Source: a phage. From it: a DNA stretch of 64,000 bases. Below are positions 1 to 28,490 of this stretch, in pieces. The notes beneath the pieces were generated by a model. It made no database searches, was not told the DNA's origin, and saw nothing but the letters and a program-made list of their open reading frames with translations. The position numbers and the translations under genes are program-made. The stretch's first letter is position 1; each line of letters opens with the position of its first letter. The stretch is taken from the sequence record OZ346167.1; one strand, given 5' to 3'.

Positions 1-2213
1 CTTTTAAACTAGAAAGATTTGTCCAGATTGCTGGTAGCAGCATGACGGGTGACTTAGGAATTGTCAAGTTACTTTATGGTGGTAAGGCAGTATTTGACCC
101 TACAGGTTCTTCTGAGATTACTATGGGGGATGTTTTAAAGGCTTTTAAAATCAATGCAAATGGTCTTAAACTAACTATTGCAGATGCTTCAAGGTCTGCA
201 ACTGTTTATCATACTCTTAATAAGCCAAGTCCTAATGAACTTGGGATGAGAACTAATGAAGAGAATGATGCAAGATATGCAAGACTTGCTGTTACAAACT
301 CATTCCAAGCTAAACAGAGTGTCGTAGCAAATGGTGAGCAGTTGACACTGAAGACCCCTGCGGGTGCAAGTGAGGCATACTCTGCTATTGTAGGTCGAAA
401 TGCCAATAATGATAAAACTTGGGCTGTTGGGAATCTAACTCAAGGAAGTCTTGATGTTCATCTCGAAAACAGCAGAGGTTCAAGAATCACTCTAGGTGCA
501 ATTGTGTCTGTTAATAAGGCTCTTGCTATTACTGGACAGGTTCAACCTTCTGACTTCTCTAACTTAGATGCTAGATACTTTACTCAGACAGCAGCTAATC
601 AGAGATTTGCGCAGCTAGTTGGTAATAACACATTCAGTGGTTTAAACACATTCAACCAACTAAGTGTTTTCAAAAAAGATGGTGAAGCAATTAGGCTACA
701 GAATGCCAATGCTGCACAACCATTGTACATTAAGGCGATTGATAGCACAGGTGTCAACAGATGGTACATTGGTAATAGTAACGAAGGTGATAACGTAGCT
801 CTAGAAAACTACAAAACTAGTGGCAAGATTACTGTAGGGACAAGTGTTAATATCAATAAAACACTAACTGTAACTGGTCAAGTTCAACCTTCTGACTGGA
901 CTAACATTGACTCTCGTTATGTTCTTATCGGTTCATACGCAAATCTTGCTAAGAAGAATGAAGCTAACACATTCACTTTACAGCAGAATATTCAATCTGA
1001 TGGTGAAGCATTAAGAATCTACAGCAAGGCTCAGAATAATTCTTCTTACATTGTTGGTAAGAATACTGATAACACAAATAAGTGGTTTATCGGTTGTGGT
1101 ACTAATGGTTCTGGTACGGCATCATTCCATAACTACTTGACTGGTGCAAGACTCGATTTAGCTGACGAAATTCTTCTGTCTAAATCTCTACAGATTACTG
1201 GACAGGTAAAACCTTCTGATTGGTCTAACTTAGATGCTAGATACTTCACTCAGTCAGCAGCTAATCAGAGATTCATGGTTGCAGGTTCTACAGGAGAAGC
1301 TACAGAGCAGAATGCAGATGGTGTGGCATGGAACGCTAAAACAGGCTTATATAATGTAACATCACCAAATGGTGATTACACATCACTTGTATTTCAAATG
1401 TATCAGGGAGTGTCCTCTTCTACTGCCTGTGCGCAACTAAAGTTCCAGTATAAAAATGGTGGGATGTGGTACAGAACATCTGTAGACAGTAAAGGTTTTG
1501 AGGCTAAGTGGTCTAAGGTTTACACAGAGGCTCAGAAACCAACCCCTTCAGAGCTTGGTGCATACACTAAAGCTGAAACTGACCAGAAGATTGCACAGGC
1601 AGTAAGTGACTCTACAGACCTTAACAAAATCTACCCAGTAGGCATTGTAACGTGGTTTAACAGTAATGTTGACCCTAATACAGCACTGCCTGGCCTAACT
1701 TGGACGTATCTGAAGAATGGTGTTGGTAGGACTATTAGAATTGCAGCAGCAAATGGTTCAGATGTTGCTACAACTGGTGGTTCAGATTCTGTAACGTTAG
1801 CTGTTGGGAACTTGCCTTCACACACTCACAGTTTTTCTGCTACCACTTCATCTTTTGACTACGGAACAAAAAACACTAACACGACTGGTGCTCACACTCA
1901 CTCTGTAAGTGGCTCTACTTCATCTGCTGGTAACCACAACCATTCCATTTCGTGGATTGGTCAGAACTCTACACACTACTCTGGTGGTGGTGGTGGTAGT
2001 ATTGGTGTAGGACCGGGTTACACCGATGCTAACGGTGCTCACACCCACTCCGTAAGTGGTACTGCCGCTTCTGCTGGTAACCATGCTCACAGTGTTGGTA
2101 TTGGTGCTCACAGTCATACAGTAAGTGGTAACACTGGTGGTACAGGTTCTGGTTCAGCATTTAGTGTTACTAACCAGTTCTACAAGTTAATGGCTTGGGT
2201 GAGAACTGCTTAA
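1..2213 (+). CDS. Tail fiber protein, distal/receptor-binding type; ORF is open to the window edge so the 5' end may lie upstream
   Basis: 723-aa ORF (42..2213) with repeated ITGQVxPSDxSNLDxRY motifs and C-terminal HxH repeats (GAHTHSVSG, GNHNHS, GNHAHS) as in T4 gp37/gp12 fibers. Confidence 0.75.
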   Translation, partial: FKLERFVQIAGSSMTGDLGIVKLLYGGKAVFDPTGSSEITMGDVLKAFKINANGLKLTIADASRSATVYHTLNKPSPNELGMRTNEENDARYARLAVTNSFQAKQSVVANGEQLTLKTPAGASEAYSAIVGRNANNDKTWAVGNLTQGSLDVHLENSRGSRITLGAIVSVNKALAITGQVQPSDFSNLDARYFTQTAANQRFAQLVGNNTFSGLNTFNQLSVFKKDGEAIRLQNANAAQPLYIKAIDSTGVNRWYIGNSNEGDNVALENYKTSGKITVGTSVNINKTLTVTGQVQPSDWTNIDSRYVLIGSYANLAKKNEANTFTLQQNIQSDGEALRIYSKAQNNSSYIVGKNTDNTNKWFIGCGTNGSGTASFHNYLTGARLDLADEILLSKSLQITGQVKPSDWSNLDARYFTQSAANQRFMVAGSTGEATEQNADGVAWNAKTGLYNVTSPNGDYTSLVFQMYQGVSSSTACAQLKFQYKNGGMWYRTSVDSKGFEAKWSKVYTEAQKPTPSELGAYTKAETDQKIAQAVSDSTDLNKIYPVGIVTWFNSNVDPNTALPGLTWTYLKNGVGRTIRIAAANGSDVATTGGSDSVTLAVGNLPSHTHSFSATTSSFDYGTKNTNTTGAHTHSVSGSTSSAGNHNHSISWIGQNSTHYSGGGGGSIGVGPGYTDANGAHTHSVSGTAASAGNHAHSVGIGAHSHTVSGNTGGTGSGSAFSVTNQFYKLMAWVRTA

Positions 2214-9372: not shown

Positions 9373-9939
9373 TCAAGATAGTTTTGCAAACTCTCCGTGG
9401 AGTTTAATAGCAGCTTCACAGTAAGCTTTATGGGCTTCTTCAGGTGTGTCATGGTAACCTAAAAACATCTTCTTACCTTTATAACTTATCTGTGCGACCC
9501 ACTTACCAGACTTCTTCTTCAGGCTTACACCCTTATAGCCTGATTTATTGGTGGATAGTTTGCTTTTATTCCAAGCACTTTGGTAGTCATATGCTTCTCT
9601 TAAGTTTACAATCCTGTTATCAAGGGAGTCTCCATTAATATGGTCAATAACACCTTTCGGCAACCTACCATACATGTACAGCCATGCGAGTCTGTGTGCT
9701 TTATGTGCTTTCTTGTCAAAATAGATAGTAATCTGCTTATGACCAGTTGAGTCAATCTGGATGCTCCCCGCTACCTGTCCTGCGTACTGACTATTAAAAA
9801 CTTTAACAGCCTTTGAGTCGCCCTCTCTACGAAGCCAAGTAAAGACCCCTGTTTCGGGGTCATAGTGTAGTAGTTCCTTTAAACGTTCTTTTGTAATCAT
9901 TTTGTCACCATTAATGCACTTCCAACCACGATTTACCAA
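9373..9939 (-). CDS. HNH homing endonuclease with AP2-like DNA-binding domain
   Basis: LHYDPETGVFTW N-terminal motif, HINGD..N HNH core, GYKGVS..GKW AP2-like tail; paralog of 19771..20262. Confidence 0.8.
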   Translation of the reverse strand: MVNRGWKCINGDKMITKERLKELLHYDPETGVFTWLRREGDSKAVKVFNSQYAGQVAGSIQIDSTGHKQITIYFDKKAHKAHRLAWLYMYGRLPKGVIDHINGDSLDNRIVNLREAYDYQSAWNKSKLSTNKSGYKGVSLKKKSGKWVAQISYKGKKMFLGYHDTPEEAHKAYCEAAIKLHGEFAKLS

Positions 9940-10465
9940 CCTTTGCTGTACCAGTTACAAGTGTTTCTTTCCTCAAACCTAAGTTTTTTGAAGCTTGTCC
10001 ATACATCCAGTCAGCAATTGCTTTCATATCATGTGTCATACCCTCTGGACATTCCCAACTATTTTCATCGTGATATGCCAGAAGTAACCTTGCTCCGATA
10101 GCTGGTTTTCGAGCATTCAGTTTTGTCAGGCCATCTTCACAGGCTTTTCTTGCTGCTAGGTTGATGGCCTCATTCTGAATCTGTGCTTCCGAACTCATCA
10201 GGAGGTAGTTCAGTAGTTTATGTGGAGATTTGCACCATATCCATGCTCCAGCGACCCTGATATAACCACCTTTAGCAATTGAAGAATTCTTCCCAAAAAC
10301 CTCTTCCAGAGCCTTTTTAGACGCCTTAAAATCGGCTTCTAAGCTATCAAGTAACTTCTTAATCTTTGGCAGACGCATATAGTAAGTTTGTTTAGTTAAT
10401 GCACCTTCCTCTGTAGAAGCTGCCTTAATGGTTTTGGCAAACTTCTCATCACCTGCACCGAACAA
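9911..10465 (-). CDS. DNA polymerase (family A), 3' exon: end of motif B and motif C
   Basis: begins (L)FGAGDEK (motif B end; T7 pol has YGAGDEK) and contains LLAYHDE (motif C). Confidence 0.8.
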   Translation of the reverse strand: MFGAGDEKFAKTIKAASTEEGALTKQTYYMRLPKIKKLLDSLEADFKASKKALEEVFGKNSSIAKGGYIRVAGAWIWCKSPHKLLNYLLMSSEAQIQNEAINLAARKACEDGLTKLNARKPAIGARLLLAYHDENSWECPEGMTHDMKAIADWMYGQASKNLGLRKETLVTGTAKVGKSWLEVH

Positions 10466-10736
10466 TACATCTGGTCAATACACTCGCAAGGTGTACCAGT
10501 TCTCTTATGAACTTCTCCGCATTTCTACGGAGTGTCGGACTATATCACGTAGTAGTAATACTACCGTTGCACTTGGGAATGGTCATTGGCTTACCACCCT
10601 ACTCTACTCAGTTCATACGTTAAGTATGCTTTTCGATAGTCTCTGAACGTTCCTCTTAAGAGGCTTCGCTGCTGATTACCATATCTTTACAGACTTAGGC
10701 TTCCAGCAATTCACAACGTTTTACATGCGCCACTGA
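10466..10736 (-). mobile_element. Group I intron (ORF-less, about 270 nt) splitting the DNA polymerase gene inside motif B; boundaries approximate
   Basis: stops in all frames; transcribed strand carries Q/R/S-like core elements AATCAGCAGC, GTTCAGAGACTA, GATATAGTCC. Confidence 0.7.
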
Positions 10737-12908
10737 CGCATAAATGCCATTTTTGGCTTTCTTACGACCTTTTGTAATCTCGTGGAGAAGTTCCTCATCC
10801 TGTGTCTCCCTACAACGAACAATATCTTCTTCCTTGTTCAGACCAAAGTAAATACTGTTCAGTGTATGCGCATCAGTCCCTGTGTAGACTTCATAGAGGT
10901 CGTTCTCAGCATCATAACGAAGATACTTGTCAGTTTCTGGATTAAGGTGCTTATCAAGATGTTTGCAATAATATCTCCCATCTTCTTGCTTGGTAAATTC
11001 TACTGACTCTTTACCTTCAGTTACTGCTTTAGTGAACTCTTTATCACCCATAAAGTTACACAGTAAAACAAGCTGTGCAGAGTTCTGGTCAACAGAAACA
11101 ATGTTAGTCCCCTCTTCACAAATCCACACTGCCCTCATAGGTGCTCCATAGACAGCAGCACCAGACGGTACGTTTACAATACCATATTGTGTCATACGTC
11201 CAGTTGAAGTACCAAACACCATTGCACCAGCACTAAGGCGACCATCAGGACGAATCTGGTTCAACCAACCTTTTTCATCATCCTTTGAGTTCTCAATAGT
11301 TCTGCGTCGGTGCATCAAAGTATAGTACTTAGCAATCTTCTGTCCAAGCTCACCTTCAATCGTATCATAAGATGATTCAGTAAGTTTTGGTGAAGTACGG
11401 ATTAAGCAAGGCTCAAGCAAGTCTGTGTATTTCTTCACAGACCAGTTATGCTCAATGTACTGTACACCTTCATGTTCAACATAACTCAAACCACACCGCT
11501 CAACCATTTCCTGCCACTTAGGATGCTTTGTAATCATCTTTTTATTGTCTTTGAAACGACAAACTTTGACAGGGCGACCATCTGAGTCTTTCTTGTAATT
11601 CCAGTCATCTGGAATCCAACCAACTGATTTCAAGTAGTCTTTAACAACTGCTACCTGAGTCATACGAGAAACTTCAAACTCAATTGGTGTATATGGTGCA
11701 TCAATCAAACCTGTGTAGCGACTTGACTCAAGTTCAAAGTGATTAACAACGTGGCTGTTATAGTACTTCACAGTTTTGACTGTTTTTACTGGCTTCCAGT
11801 CTTTGCATTTCTTACCAATCTTTGCGTTCAACTCATTGCAAATTGCACGAGCATCCTTCATTGCTACAAATCCCTCTTTGTACTCTTCACCAGTTACAGA
11901 GTTGGTTGGTGTATAGCAATTTCTCTTTTCAATGTTAAAAATCTTTGTAGTTGGCTTACCAAATGGCTTGATTTCATATGTCTGCATCTCACCGTTACGT
12001 ACCTGCTGACGATACTTTGTCTTAGGGTACTTGGTAATCCTCTTCAGCCCATCTGCATGACCGAATGCTTCAACATATTCATTCCAAGCTTTTGCAAACT
12101 CTTCTCCAGTAACTTTACCTTTGGTCTTAATAGTTGGAGGAAGATGTGGTTCAACCTCTGAAGCAAGCTCATTAGTCAACTTGTCAAGTTCCTTTACATG
12201 GAACTCCATAAGCTCTTTATCAGCTTTCCAACCATTGATAGCTTGCTGGCTCATCCAGAAAGATGTTTCTTTAGCTCGCATGTAGGTTTCATAAGTGTCT
12301 ATGCCACACTTCTTAAGCTTGAGATACTCGTTATCAAGTGCCCGTTTAGTTTTGGCGTTAATACGGATATCTTCTACGACACGAGTGAAGATTTCTGCAT
12401 TCCACACACCCCAATGCTCAATCTCTGGCTTACGAACACCAACACGAGCACCCCATGCAGCCAAACCATGAGCACCTTTATAACCCTTTGGAGTTGGCCT
12501 ATCCATCCACTGAACACGAGACTGGATAAGAGAATCCTGAAAGAAATTACCCCACGGCTTACATTTTGGATTATCAAAGTTCCATAAATCAGGTGCAATG
12601 TGATTGAAAACCCACCAGTCATAACCGAGACCATTATGGATGCAAAGACGTTTTGCCTTTAACGCAAATTCAACACCTTCACGTAAACCACCTTTGATGT
12701 ACTTAGTGTACTTGTGACCGAGGATAGGCTCATCTGTAAAGACCCATACAGGTGGCTCTTCATCGTCAGATTTATAGTCTGCAAAGGCCATTACGTGAAC
12801 TTTAGTGAACTCAAGGAGTAAACCATCAGTTTCTGTATCACCAACCAAATGTAAGTTTTTAAAATCTACGTTTTCCATTTTTACTCCCTCTAAAATCATT
12901 AACCTCAT
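10695..12908 (-). CDS. DNA polymerase (family A) with 3'-5' exonuclease domain, 5' exon (ORF runs into the intron; true exon probably ends near 10737)
   Basis: exonuclease motif VGDTETDG near N-terminus; ends ...RKKAKNGIYA at start of motif B. Confidence 0.85.
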   Translation of the reverse strand: MRLMILEGVKMENVDFKNLHLVGDTETDGLLLEFTKVHVMAFADYKSDDEEPPVWVFTDEPILGHKYTKYIKGGLREGVEFALKAKRLCIHNGLGYDWWVFNHIAPDLWNFDNPKCKPWGNFFQDSLIQSRVQWMDRPTPKGYKGAHGLAAWGARVGVRKPEIEHWGVWNAEIFTRVVEDIRINAKTKRALDNEYLKLKKCGIDTYETYMRAKETSFWMSQQAINGWKADKELMEFHVKELDKLTNELASEVEPHLPPTIKTKGKVTGEEFAKAWNEYVEAFGHADGLKRITKYPKTKYRQQVRNGEMQTYEIKPFGKPTTKIFNIEKRNCYTPTNSVTGEEYKEGFVAMKDARAICNELNAKIGKKCKDWKPVKTVKTVKYYNSHVVNHFELESSRYTGLIDAPYTPIEFEVSRMTQVAVVKDYLKSVGWIPDDWNYKKDSDGRPVKVCRFKDNKKMITKHPKWQEMVERCGLSYVEHEGVQYIEHNWSVKKYTDLLEPCLIRTSPKLTESSYDTIEGELGQKIAKYYTLMHRRRTIENSKDDEKGWLNQIRPDGRLSAGAMVFGTSTGRMTQYGIVNVPSGAAVYGAPMRAVWICEEGTNIVSVDQNSAQLVLLCNFMGDKEFTKAVTEGKESVEFTKQEDGRYYCKHLDKHLNPETDKYLRYDAENDLYEVYTGTDAHTLNSIYFGLNKEEDIVRCRETQDEELLHEITKGRKKAKNGIYASVAHVKRCELLEA

Positions 12909-26545: not shown

Positions 26546-27745
26546 ATGAACAAAGTACAGATTATTAAAAAGAACGGCTCACTTGAAGAACCTGATATCA
26601 AAAAAGTTTTAGCAGCAGTCACAAAGTCAGCTAATAGGGTTGGGTATAAAGAACTCCCACCAGATGTTACCCAAGCTCTTGAGTCAGCATTTATGAGGAT
26701 TCTGGTAAAATCCACTAAGCAGAATAATTTACTCATTTCAGTAAATGATATTCACAGTATTGTTGAGGGTGCTTTGGCAGAAGTCAATCACGAGATTTAT
26801 GAGTCTTACTCAACATATAGAAATTACCGTAAAGAAGTTGCTCAAAATTGGGATGAACTCTACCAGAAGACCAAAGATACACTCTTCTTAGGTGACAGAG
26901 AGAATGCTAACTTTGACAGCAGTTTAATTTCTACAAAAGGTTCAATTATTCGTGGTTATCTGACTAAAGAAATCTTTAAACAGTACCATTTAACACCAGA
27001 GGAACTTGAAGCCATTGAAAAAGGGTTTATCTATATCCATGATTTAAGAGACCTAATTTTTGGTGGTATCAACTGTTGCCTGTTTGACATTGGTAAAGTC
27101 CTGAAAGGCGGCTTTGAAATGTCTGGCATCGAATATTGTGAACCAAAGTCTGTACTGTCGGCCTTACAGGTTATTGGTGACGTAGTTCTTTCAGCAACTG
27201 CACAGCAATTTGGTGGTTTTACTTTAGCAGAGATTGATAAGGTACTTGTACCGTATGCTAAGAAGTCTCTACGCTATCATGCTGAGAAAGCAGCATCTTA
27301 TGGTATTCCTAAAGAACATTACCACAATTATGTCATGGAGCAGCTACAGATTGAACTGACTCAAGGTTTCCAGTCACTTGAAATGAAGCTAAATACTGTA
27401 CCTTGTAGTCGTGGGGATTTTGCATTCACAACTTTGACATTCGGGTTACTTGACTCAGATATGTCCAATGAAGATAACCGACTGCAATATATGATTGCAA
27501 GTACTCTCCTAGATGTTCGTATGAATGGACAAGGTAAGAGCAAGAAGCCTGTTGTATTCCCTAAACTGGTTTATATCTATGACCAGAAGAGACACGATGA
27601 GAATATCTGTCAAGGACACCTGTACAGTAAAGCCATTGAGTGTTGCTCTAAAGCAATGTATCCAGATTTCTTAAGTGTATCTGGTCATGGTGCTGTAGCA
27701 GAAGCTTTTGAGCGTTCTGGCAAGGTAATTTCGCCGATGGGTTAA
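26546..27745 (+). CDS. nrdD: Anaerobic ribonucleotide reductase, 5' exon
   Basis: ATP-cone N-terminus; reading frame broken by intron after ...VISPMG. Confidence 0.85.
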   Translation: MNKVQIIKKNGSLEEPDIKKVLAAVTKSANRVGYKELPPDVTQALESAFMRILVKSTKQNNLLISVNDIHSIVEGALAEVNHEIYESYSTYRNYRKEVAQNWDELYQKTKDTLFLGDRENANFDSSLISTKGSIIRGYLTKEIFKQYHLTPEELEAIEKGFIYIHDLRDLIFGGINCCLFDIGKVLKGGFEMSGIEYCEPKSVLSALQVIGDVVLSATAQQFGGFTLAEIDKVLVPYAKKSLRYHAEKAASYGIPKEHYHNYVMEQLQIELTQGFQSLEMKLNTVPCSRGDFAFTTLTFGLLDSDMSNEDNRLQYMIASTLLDVRMNGQGKSKKPVVFPKLVYIYDQKRHDENICQGHLYSKAIECCSKAMYPDFLSVSGHGAVAEAFERSGKVISPMG

Positions 27746-28490
27746 CAGGCTCTATAGCTCATCTAAAACGTGCCTAAACAGGGAAACTCTACAGGTGTAG
27801 ACAATCCTGTGCTAAATGATGTACGATGTAAGAAACTATACAATATAGGAGTCTTACATGCCAAACTATCACGTCACTGAAGATGGAAAAGTCTTTAGGG
27901 AAAATGGTGTAGAGCTTACGCAGTGGAAATCCAACACTGGGTATATGAAAGTGAGGTTTTACGGTAAGAAGAATCGTGACATGTATGTCCACAGGTTAGT
28001 TGCTGAGAAATATGTACCTAACCCGAATAATCTTCCAATTGTAAAACATAAGGACGATAACAAACTAAATAACCACGCATCTAACTTAGAATGGGGTACT
28101 CATTCTGAGAATGCTAAAGAGGGTTATGAGAACGGATGTTACAAGTTCCACAAGCGTTCATATGCCGTGAAAGCCACACACAAAGTGACAAAGGAAGTTA
28201 TTGTTACTAAGTCAATACGAGAGTTGTCCAATATACTTGGACACAATCGCAAGACCATCTCTTCAATATTGAAGGGTGTAAAAGAGCATAATAACTTCGA
28301 ATATGAGTTTGAATACATCTAAATGCCGAACGACTAACCGTGATGAATGTAGCGGTGTAGGGTCAAGCGACTCGAAATGGTACGCTACTTAGAAATAAGT
28401 AGAAGATATAGTCTGGACTTACTGGCGACAGTAAGCAGCTTGAATAAAGCGGGGTAAGCTTAGCGAACTTACCTGAACAACAAGTGTAGA
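27746..28490 (+). mobile_element. Group I intron in nrdD carrying an HNH homing endonuclease ORF; boundaries approximate
   Basis: CTAAACAGGGAAACTCTACAGGTGTAGACAATCCTGTGCTAAAT resembles my recollection of the T4 td intron core; S-like AGATATAGTC in 3' part. Confidence 0.75.
27858..28322 (+). CDS. Intron-encoded HNH homing endonuclease
   Basis: HRLVAEKYVPNP...HKDDNKLNNHASNLEW HNH core. Confidence 0.75.
   Translation: MPNYHVTEDGKVFRENGVELTQWKSNTGYMKVRFYGKKNRDMYVHRLVAEKYVPNPNNLPIVKHKDDNKLNNHASNLEWGTHSENAKEGYENGCYKFHKRSYAVKATHKVTKEVIVTKSIRELSNILGHNRKTISSILKGVKEHNNFEYEFEYI

Follow-up and report, generated by a model that had tools for sequence, protein, structure and literature searches.

The family-A DNA polymerase gene of a Felix O1-like phage is split within motif B by an insert of 268 nt, and with a probability of roughly 93%, judged from its sequence, this insert is a working group I intron that lacks an ORF, splices itself, and belongs to the IA2 type. 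It occupies the minus strand at 10468..10735 of the window, meaning the whole stretch of 64,000 nt from record OZ346167.1 that was analysed. When the 3.7-kb polymerase region was compared with phage records, 262 matches were obtained, the best of them about 95% identical. The named matches were mostly Escherichia, Salmonella, and Shigella phages, and the matching records that were fetched all belonged to the Ounavirinae, genus Felixounavirus. By this kinship the window is assigned to Felixounavirus as a Felix O1-like myophage, and the cluster of over 20 tRNA genes that it has at 57-64 kb is consistent with this.

The divided polymerase gene and the limits of the insert

An earlier, sequence-only reading of this DNA had the polymerase encoded in two ORFs, and both were found on the minus strand with the ends that it had quoted. 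The parts of the locus are the following:

10695..12908, minus strand: DNA polymerase upstream ORF, ending ...GRKKAKNGIYA, then 12 codons into the insert, then TAA
10736..12908, minus strand: family-A DNA polymerase exon 1, ending ...AAT GGC ATT TAT GCG T
10724..10742, minus strand: P1 and internal guide region, 6-7 bp, read from the sequence
10468..10735, minus strand: ORF-less group I intron, IA2-like, 268 nt, from RF00028, presence/absence polymorphism, stops, and covariation
10468..10468, minus strand: terminal G (omega G) and 3' splice site, from intron-less alleles; the intron ends ...CCAGAUG
9911..10467, minus strand: DNA polymerase exon 2, beginning UA UUG UUC GGU (..L LFGAGDEK), stop codon included
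9911..10465, minus strand: DNA polymerase downstream ORF, first residues LFGAGDEK

The limits of the insert are set by relatives that lack it. In phage bumzen, the polymerase is a single uninterrupted gene of 906 aa, and its intron-less allele reads ...AAT GGC ATC TAC GCC C/TG TTA TTT GGA GCC GGA GAC GAG AAG at the site (a slash marks the junction here and below). This allele sets the end of exon 1, whose final nucleotide, U10736, is the first base of a split Leu codon, and the position of the junction is fixed by 26 intron-less alleles altogether. Deletion of 10468-10735 in silico joins GCG T to TA TTG TTC and yields a 2730-nt ORF with a 909-aa product, which matches the 906-aa bumzen protein at 896 positions and has no internal gaps against it. 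The polymerase annotation in sister phages begins 3 codons further in (MILEG...). The predicted ligated-exon junction, ...TATGCGT/TATTGTTCGG, would rebuild ...KNGIYA-L-LFGAGDEK, with Leu coming from the split codon T/TA. The span of 10466-10736 given at first was in the right place but 1-2 nt too wide at each end, and while the protein does resume with LFGAGDEK, the residue before it had been taken for Val, which appears if translation is run on across the intron's 3' end, where the codon is GTA.

Only the spliced product reaches the Pfam DNA_pol_A threshold, the computed protein scoring 50.9 bits against a cutoff of 34.3; when unspliced, exon 2, which holds the C-terminal part of the domain, scores 24.1 bits, and exon 1 gives no match. 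The claim that the gene is divided in motif B is borne out by alignment as well. The spliced product aligns with R518-K536 of T7 DNA polymerase (RDNAKTFIYGFLYGAGDEK), and its C-terminal region places GRKKAKNGIYALLFGAGDEK over T7 TRDNAKTFIYGFLYGAGDEK (residues 517-536). The break lies between the residues aligned to T7 G527 and F528, in the middle of the O-helix motif (motif B), and the split codon corresponds to F528, two residues past Y526. Tyr 526 of T7 reportedly corresponds, after Tabor and Richardson in 1995, to F762 of E. coli Pol I, which would make the insertion site roughly codon 764 (~763/764) of that enzyme, in the O-helix. The polymerase intron sites numbered on E. coli are 674 for SPO1, SP82, Bastille, and Pf-WMP3, 676 for phiL7, and 881 for phiI and W31 (PMC3428280), and the motif-B site, as aligned, differs from all of these.

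Each of the three sense frames of the insert is closed by at least 5 stops, as the earlier mention of stops in every frame had it, and no intron-borne homing endonuclease ORF occurs in any of these frames of the 268-nt intron. An intein was ruled out, since the exon-1 frame runs into a stop 12 codons on and the length of 268 nt is not divisible by 3.

The exon ends can pair with the insert in the manner expected of P1 and P10. For P1, exon UAUGCGU (10742-10736) lies opposite intron GCGCAUG (10730-10724), with the wobble U10736.G10730 marking the 5' splice site. In turn, the loop of P1, CAGUG (10735-10731), is the P10 partner of exon 2, where UAUUG (10467-10463) could form 5 pairs with it, 2 of them G.U.

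Ribozyme structure and its conservation

A scan of the whole 64-kb window with Rfam gave a single group I match, to RF00028 on the minus strand at 10515..10798, with a score of 64.2 bits against a gathering score (GA) of 50 and E = 5.8e-14. Clearly, this is not a chance match. The coordinates of the hit are inexact, the P1/P2 of the model being forced ~62 nt into exon 1 and P9.1/P9.2 being left uncovered. The covariance-model search had been put forward in the sequence-only reading as a check of its group I claim, and the match on the minus strand above the gathering threshold, the full helix set, and the covariation in the core all uphold that claim.

Helices P1, P3-P9, P7.1, P7.2, P9.1, P9.2, and P10 can all be drawn. 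P1 is short, and P2 is absent from the 268-nt intron, two points that tell against its reading as a functional intron. The elements of the core and the 3' periphery are these:

10537..10718, minus strand: catalytic core, from coordinates and hairpin folds, with covariation
10712-10718 with 10565-10571, minus strand: P3, CGUUGUG with UGCAACG
10703-10708 with 10670-10675, minus strand: P4, UGCUGG with UCAGCA
10678-10700, minus strand: P5/P5a, capped by a GUAA tetraloop
10647-10669, minus strand: P6/P6a, a short hairpin, CCUC-UUAA-GAGG
10637-10643 with 10537-10542, minus strand: P7, GAGACUA with UAGUCC, with a bulged A
10614-10628, minus strand: P7.1, between P7 and P3'
10575-10599, minus strand: P7.2, between P7 and P3'
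10549-10564, minus strand: P8
10471..10532, minus strand: the 3' peripheral helices P9, P9.1, and P9.2
10515-10532, minus strand: P9, with a GAAA loop
10498-10513, minus strand: P9.1, GUUCAUAAGAGAAC, common to the Bas89 polymerase intron
10471-10499, minus strand: P9.2

The three core-like elements first quoted all lie on the minus strand and can now be named, AATCAGCAGC as J5/4-P4'-P6, GTTCAGAGACTA as J6/7-P7, and GATATAGTCC as J8/7-P7'. Subgroup IA2 is recognized by a P7.1 and a P7.2 linked by G-U-A, with P2 dispensable (PMC3428280). The P7.1/P7.2 linker of the window, GAACUGAGUAGAGUA, has GUA, and on this feature the 268-nt element is classed as an IA2-like group I intron.

Within the genus, the ribozyme is about 97-100% identical between Felixounavirus lineages, the ORF found in longer forms of the intron only about 80% at the protein level, and the nearby exons about 75%. 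The few changes that do occur fall in loops (GUAA to GGAA) or keep the pairing. They include wobbles turned into Watson-Crick pairs (G.U to G-C in P5a and P3), a Watson-Crick pair turned into a wobble (U-A to U.G in P8), and a double compensatory change from U-A to C-G in P8.

Beyond the genus, BLAST turned up related introns in genes of other phages. They lie in the RNA polymerase gene of Gamaleyavirus ZQ2, in the primase/helicase gene of Pseudoalteromonas phage RIO-1 (where the group I intron is annotated), in genes that encode DNA polymerase in crAss-like phage cr3_1, Flavobacterium phage Fpv2, and Escherichia phage Bas89, in Vibrio phage 11895-B1 (two introns), and in a human faecal contig. 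With Rfam, no match at the gathering level was obtained for the ORF-containing relatives owing to their long insertion, and so the ORFs were excised by hand. When 11 related ribozymes were aligned with MAFFT alone, the strands of P3' and P8 were broken up, and this alignment was discarded.

The alignment used instead covered 12 related phage introns and was hand-anchored, with helix strands of equal length and fixed linkers, so that its figures are biased toward the structure: 97.9% of cells were paired, as against 25-44% when the partners were slid by 1-3 columns, compensatory changes on both sides were seen at 26 of the 40 core pairs, and none of 500 shuffles attained any of the observed covariation measures. 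The less biased part of this evidence comes from P3, P4, P5, and P7, which are adjacent to anchors; in P3, P4, and P7, taken at fixed offsets from invariant anchors, compensatory changes occur at 5 of 7, 3 of 6, and 1 of 6 pairs, respectively. The counts for P7.1 (3/3), P7.2 (3/3), P8 (5/5), and P9 (5/5) favour the structure, the strands of these helices having been picked by eye.

Intron forms, co-conversion tracts, and the neighbouring endonuclease gene

Polymerase alleles were compared at 35 loci, made up of the window, 3 GenBank loci, and 31 IMG/VR loci. The site was empty in 26, held the 268-nt intron in 3, and held a form of 780-805 nt in the remaining 6. The exon bases that enter P1 and P10, TATGCGT/TATTGTT, were present in 9 of the 9 carriers. 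In 24 of the 26 empty alleles, C stands at -1 together with other synonymous codons (GCA C/TG CTG or GCC C/TG TTA), and the other two (L017 and L020) read GCG T/T. Among the records from the query with the polymerase region, 97 of 262 have the intron, or about a third of the sequenced relatives, and 21 of the 60 best matches listed are of the two-piece, ORF-containing kind.

The long form, of about 800 nt in EC6 and others, contains a 160-aa ORF that matches Pfam Endonuclease_7 (PF02945) at 5.9e-20 and is looped out of an extended P6a stem in P6. A megablast search with the EC6 endonuclease ORF returned at least 24 records, a number that is not a full count of the ORF-containing form, since a second ORF lineage is too divergent to be reached in this way. 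The description of the window's intron as ORF-less holds in both respects, given the stops in all its sense frames and the sister phages in which the same ribozyme holds this ORF. A further form of 311 nt (GEC_vB_BS, Tf, and NJ12) is the long form minus its ORF, and it retains the long P6a stem and the last ORF codons, AGC AAA TAA. The P6a of the 268-nt form is short and different, and its first pair is C-G as opposed to U-A in the long form, so it did not arise by recent deletion from the long forms now seen. The 268-nt intron represents the mobile element in its minimal form; the full form, in sister phages, has an Endo VII-motif (DHHRN-type) endonuclease ORF within P6.

The exons that flank the intron in the window are mosaic. 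Outside a short patch, the polymerase of the window is 98-100% identical to intron-less alleles of the bumzen type; the patch, from about -23 to +71, is donor-like and has 22 differences from the bumzen-like backbone. In exon 2, 15 sites between +1 and +71 differ from the bumzen type, and over this stretch the intron-carrying EC6 allele is matched at all but 1 site, while from +77 on the resemblance switches back and the bumzen type is favoured over EC6. Upstream, the sites that depart from the bumzen type are -1, -2, -5, -8, and -21 to -23, and there the window matches the intron-carrying type of L031. In L029, which has the 268-nt intron on the same backbone, the donor-like downstream tract stops between +17 and +26.

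This pattern indicates recombination of the homing type, in which the intron would have been gained or exchanged along with co-conversion of the flanking exons. Such acquisition or exchange may have occurred more than once, or else the tracts have eroded differently since. The intron would have arrived by homologous recombination, probably in mixed infections. As the 268-nt form encodes no endonuclease, a relative with the ORF, present in the same mixed infection, presumably made the break in trans, or ordinary phage recombination sufficed. A run of third-position differences in the bumzen-type empty alleles was also considered as a set of endonuclease-resistance mutations; this was rejected, the run fitting the general ~75% backbone divergence there.

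It is conceivable, although rather doubtful, that the ORF-less intron at its distinct motif-B site is not a dead end of the homing cycle but an actively exchanged "immunity allele" that is mobilized in trans. By its presence, the intron may disrupt the target of the Endo VII-type endonuclease made by ORF-containing relatives. Trans mobilization in mixed infections would, in addition, explain why two carriers with the same backbone have differing tracts.

Another source of cleavage has to be weighed, because an endonuclease gene adjoins exon 2 immediately downstream:

9373..9900, minus strand: free-standing HNH_3 + AP2-domain endonuclease gene (Pfam HNH_3 2e-15, AP2 3.5e-12)

Together, this gene and the ORF-less intron could in principle form a collaborative homing pair, in which the enzyme would cut intron-less alleles and the intron would protect its own genome. 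Collaborative homing of this arrangement is said to have been proposed for T3/phiI and for cyanophage psbA (Bonocora and Shub in 2009 and Zeng et al. in 2009, as cited in PMC6083498), and an HNH gene does lie in the slot right after exon 2 in all 3 genomes with the 268-nt intron. However, the slot is also filled by an HNH gene in 16 of the 26 genomes with an empty site, including bumzen, whose copy is 87% identical to that of the window, and it is empty in 5 of the 6 genomes with the ORF-containing intron (1/6 has the gene). Moreover, identity among the HNH genes in this slot ranges from 46 to 93%. The presence of the gene is independent of the state of the intron, and such a pairing, which is very unlikely, was set aside for that reason; the HNH-AP2 gene is regarded here as a selfish gene in its own right that sits in a variable slot.

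Predicted splicing, related introns, and annotation

The 268-nt intron most likely splices itself, and the course proposed here is drawn from the general chemistry of the group I family. First, the last 6-7 nt of exon 1 (UAUGCGU) would pair with the guide GCGCAUG to form P1 and place a U.G pair at the cleavage site. An exogenous guanosine bound in P7 would then attack after U10736. Next, the terminal G10468 would take over the guanosine site, while P10 would hold exon 2 (UAUUG) to the P1 loop (CAGUG). Finally, the 3'-OH of exon 1 would attack after G10468, ligating GCG U/UA UUG, restoring ...GIYALLFGAGDEK..., and giving a single polymerase of 909 aa. An unspliced RNA would instead encode a shortened protein that ends 12 codons past the start of the intron, without the rest of motif B and motif C.

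Could the insert instead be a decayed remnant that no longer splices itself, so that a split or truncated polymerase is tolerated or a host or other splicing factor is needed? In favour of this, the insert no longer has the endonuclease ORF, a loss that accompanies the degeneration phase of homing, and the single-sequence minimum free energy (MFE) is no more stable than that of shuffled controls (z = -0.86). Single-sequence folding recovers P1, P3, P4, P5, P7.1, P7.2, P8, and P9 and misses P7. An unremarkable MFE is common in group I introns with long-range pairs, and the result, which lends no support, was not used as evidence. Against decay, all core helices are intact, the ribozyme is far more conserved than the adjoining ORF and exons, and its substitutions keep the pairing. 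The P1/P10 exon sequences are likewise invariant in the carriers, the polymerase is an essential, single-copy gene, and the intron is present in 97 of the 262 records. All of this leaves a decayed remnant with only a slight chance.

Scarcely credible is a polymerase made as two separate polypeptides with the intervening RNA as a mere spacer, as the two "DNA polymerase" CDSs annotated in many GenBank records would have it, because the downstream ORF lacks ATG and GTG starts and offers nothing but a TTG in frame, not preceded by any Shine-Dalgarno-like sequence, the division comes midway through the O-helix motif (T7 G527/F528), sister phages make one continuous protein with an identical junction, and the spacer itself scores as a group I intron.

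Self-splicing phage introns of the IA2 type also occur in the td, nrdB, and nrdD (sunY) genes of T4, where they occupy genes of nucleotide metabolism and replication, have both ORF-containing and ORF-less relatives, and home with co-conversion of the flanking exons. The window's intron differs from these in host gene and in phage family. The T4 introns are listed in PMC3185647, which reports no insertion or intron in the polymerase gene of Felix O1 itself.

The Felixounavirus polymerase intron is already known in sister phages. Other Felixounaviruses (Meda, SPJ41, JLBYU28, KEP1, and others) have the same 268-nt intron in the identical position of their polymerase gene, with 97-99.6% identity, the figure being 97.8% for Meda and 97.4% for SPJ41. 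The window differs from these copies in a few loop or compensatory substitutions and in its own co-conversion tract, and in nothing substantial. The polymerase intron of Meda has been mentioned before (PMC6486253), and two introns are listed among the ncRNAs of the SPJ41 genome (PMC9951933). Fang et al. described the Endo VII-motif proteins of EC6, JH2, FSL SP-010, and 2 JES-2013 as intron-encoded and placed them in the proposed DHHRN family of homing endonucleases (PMC6083498). In the searchable literature, no paper was found with mapped splice sites, a drawn structure, or a splicing test for the intron in Felixounavirus.

The closest parallels in kind are the introns of phiI and W31, which also lie in family-A polymerase genes of enterobacterial phages, belong to IA2, lack P2, have P7.1/P7.2, and hold their ORF, when present, in P6/P6a (PMC3428280). 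They differ in site, which is 881 (PMC3428280) as opposed to motif B at T7 G527/F528, and in endonuclease, the HNH enzyme I-TslI as opposed to the Endo VII-motif type in relatives of the window's intron; splicing was shown for phiI and W31, whereas here it is predicted from sequence. The introns of SPO1, SP82, Bastille, and Pf-WMP3 (site 674) and phiL7 (site 676) likewise belong to group I and interrupt conserved functional motifs of family-A polymerase genes in phages. They are mobile and have HNH nicking endonucleases (PMC3428280, PMC11878797), and they differ from the window's intron in their insertion site and in carrying an ORF.

Nearer in place is the DNA polymerase I intron of Escherichia phage KarlSchell_Bas89 (PQ850613, a joined CDS), which has a related core with an identical P9.1, interrupts motif B of a T7-like polymerase, and has its ORF looped out of P6. 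As reconstructed, its site would lie 6 nt downstream of the one here and would split the Tyr codon that aligns with T7 Y530 behind its first base. The reconstructed junction, ...TFIYAFN/YGAGDAK, gives an open 614-aa product; the other junction candidates were rejected, this single one having given an open frame, a U at -1, and a terminal G. The Bas89 intron also differs in having a P2 hairpin, and the comparison of its ORF with the EC6 endonuclease is not significant (E 0.14).

The 268-nt intron leaves the current understanding of group I introns unchanged, and the contribution lies in exact coordinates, a corrected annotation, and a tidy series for studies of homing. Felixounavirus offers a complete natural series of the homing cycle in coliphages and Salmonella phages that are easy to handle, running from the empty site through the Endo VII-motif intron and the ORF-deleted 311-nt form to the minimal 268-nt form, with visible co-conversion tracts. 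The motif-B site, moreover, is an addition to the polymerase intron sites in the accessible literature. Many Felixounavirus genomes list two "DNA polymerase" CDSs here, or a spurious antisense "hypothetical protein" on the intron, and these would be remedied by one joined CDS and an intron feature.

On the plus strand of the window, a 72-aa ORF (10428..10646) overlaps the intron, and a shorter ORF at this place is annotated as "hypothetical protein" in some records. As a real gene the 72-aa ORF is regarded as spurious, and it is impossible in the intron-less relatives.

A second intron, in the reductase gene

The polymerase intron is not the only intervening sequence in this genome: on sequence evidence, the anaerobic ribonucleotide reductase (nrdD-like) gene is also split by a group I intron, which contains an ORF of its own.

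27743..28484, plus strand: second group I intron, splitting the nrdD-like gene, with an ORF inside at 27858..28322

The exon-1 ORF terminates in ...ISPMG followed by TAA, while exon 2 picks up at CRAFLSPYHNEYGEEFYVGRAN, and the resulting boundaries, GGU|UAA...CAAG|UGU, are consistent with the rule of a U at position -1 and a terminal G. Rfam returned a sub-threshold match covering the 3′ half only (28255-28435; 33.1 bits vs a GA of 50). The internal ORF encodes 154 aa, and its sequence, together with the description of the related phage Meda, suggests a putative HNH endonuclease. This arrangement agrees with Meda, where an HNH gene has been reported to split the same reductase (PMC6486253).

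Related introns in other phages

Relatives of the polymerase intron in phages outside the genus include the following two.

Escherichia phage KarlSchell_Bas89 (L043), 1457|2238: polymerase intron of 780 nt, with an ORF in P6
Pseudoalteromonas phage RIO-1 (L042), about 1430..1460: 5′ exon end and guide sequence of a primase/helicase intron

The Bas89 intron lies in motif B of a T7-like polymerase, 6 nt downstream of the site used in the window, and its spliced reconstruction (...TRDNAKTFIYAFN|YGAGDAKLG) gives an open 614-aa product; polymerase motif B thus provides at least two neighbouring insertion sites. RIO-1 is an unrelated phage and its intron occupies an unrelated host gene, despite sharing the 5′ exon end and guide with the window's intron (AUGCGU|CAAAGGCGCAUGUAAAAC in RIO-1 and AUGCGU|CAGUGGCGCAUGUAAAAC in the window). 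This likeness may reflect a common target preference or an ectopic transposition.

Polymerase alleles and anomalous records

At the polymerase junction, two intron-less Felixounavirus contigs from IMG/VR (L017 and L020) read GCG T|T, the exon end of intron-carrying alleles, where an empty allele usually has C at -1. Such alleles could represent precise intron loss or just permissive recipient sites. Another unusual allele occurs in Salmonella phage GEC_vB_BS.

GEC_vB_BS (L036, GenBank record MW006475), 711..810: fusion of polymerase exon 2 with the HNH-AP2 gene

After ...GATGAGAAGTTTGC, exon 2 of this record runs straight into the final ~60 nt of the downstream HNH-AP2 gene, with about 1 kb missing, polymerase motif C included. 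Shigella phage Tf carries the same 311-nt intron, and its exon 2 and HNH gene are normal. The fusion is either an assembly error or the mark of a defective genome.

Two records named as Campylobacter phages A132 and A126 (MG065664 and MG065668) are 95% identical to the window's Felixounavirus polymerase region and contain its intron at 99.3% identity; mislabelling or contamination is the probable explanation. Both are unannotated, and their stated host is C. jejuni.

Other features of the window

57425..63551, plus strand: over 20 clustered tRNA genes, above the Rfam threshold
10428..10646, plus strand: antisense ORF of 72 aa, overlapping both the polymerase intron and the beginning of exon 2

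Felix O1 is reported to have 22 tRNAs (PMC3185647), a number that the size of the window's tRNA cluster matches well. The antisense ORF is probably a gene-calling artefact, since it would be impossible in intron-less relatives; some sister genomes have a "hypothetical protein" annotated at this position, as a shorter ORF.
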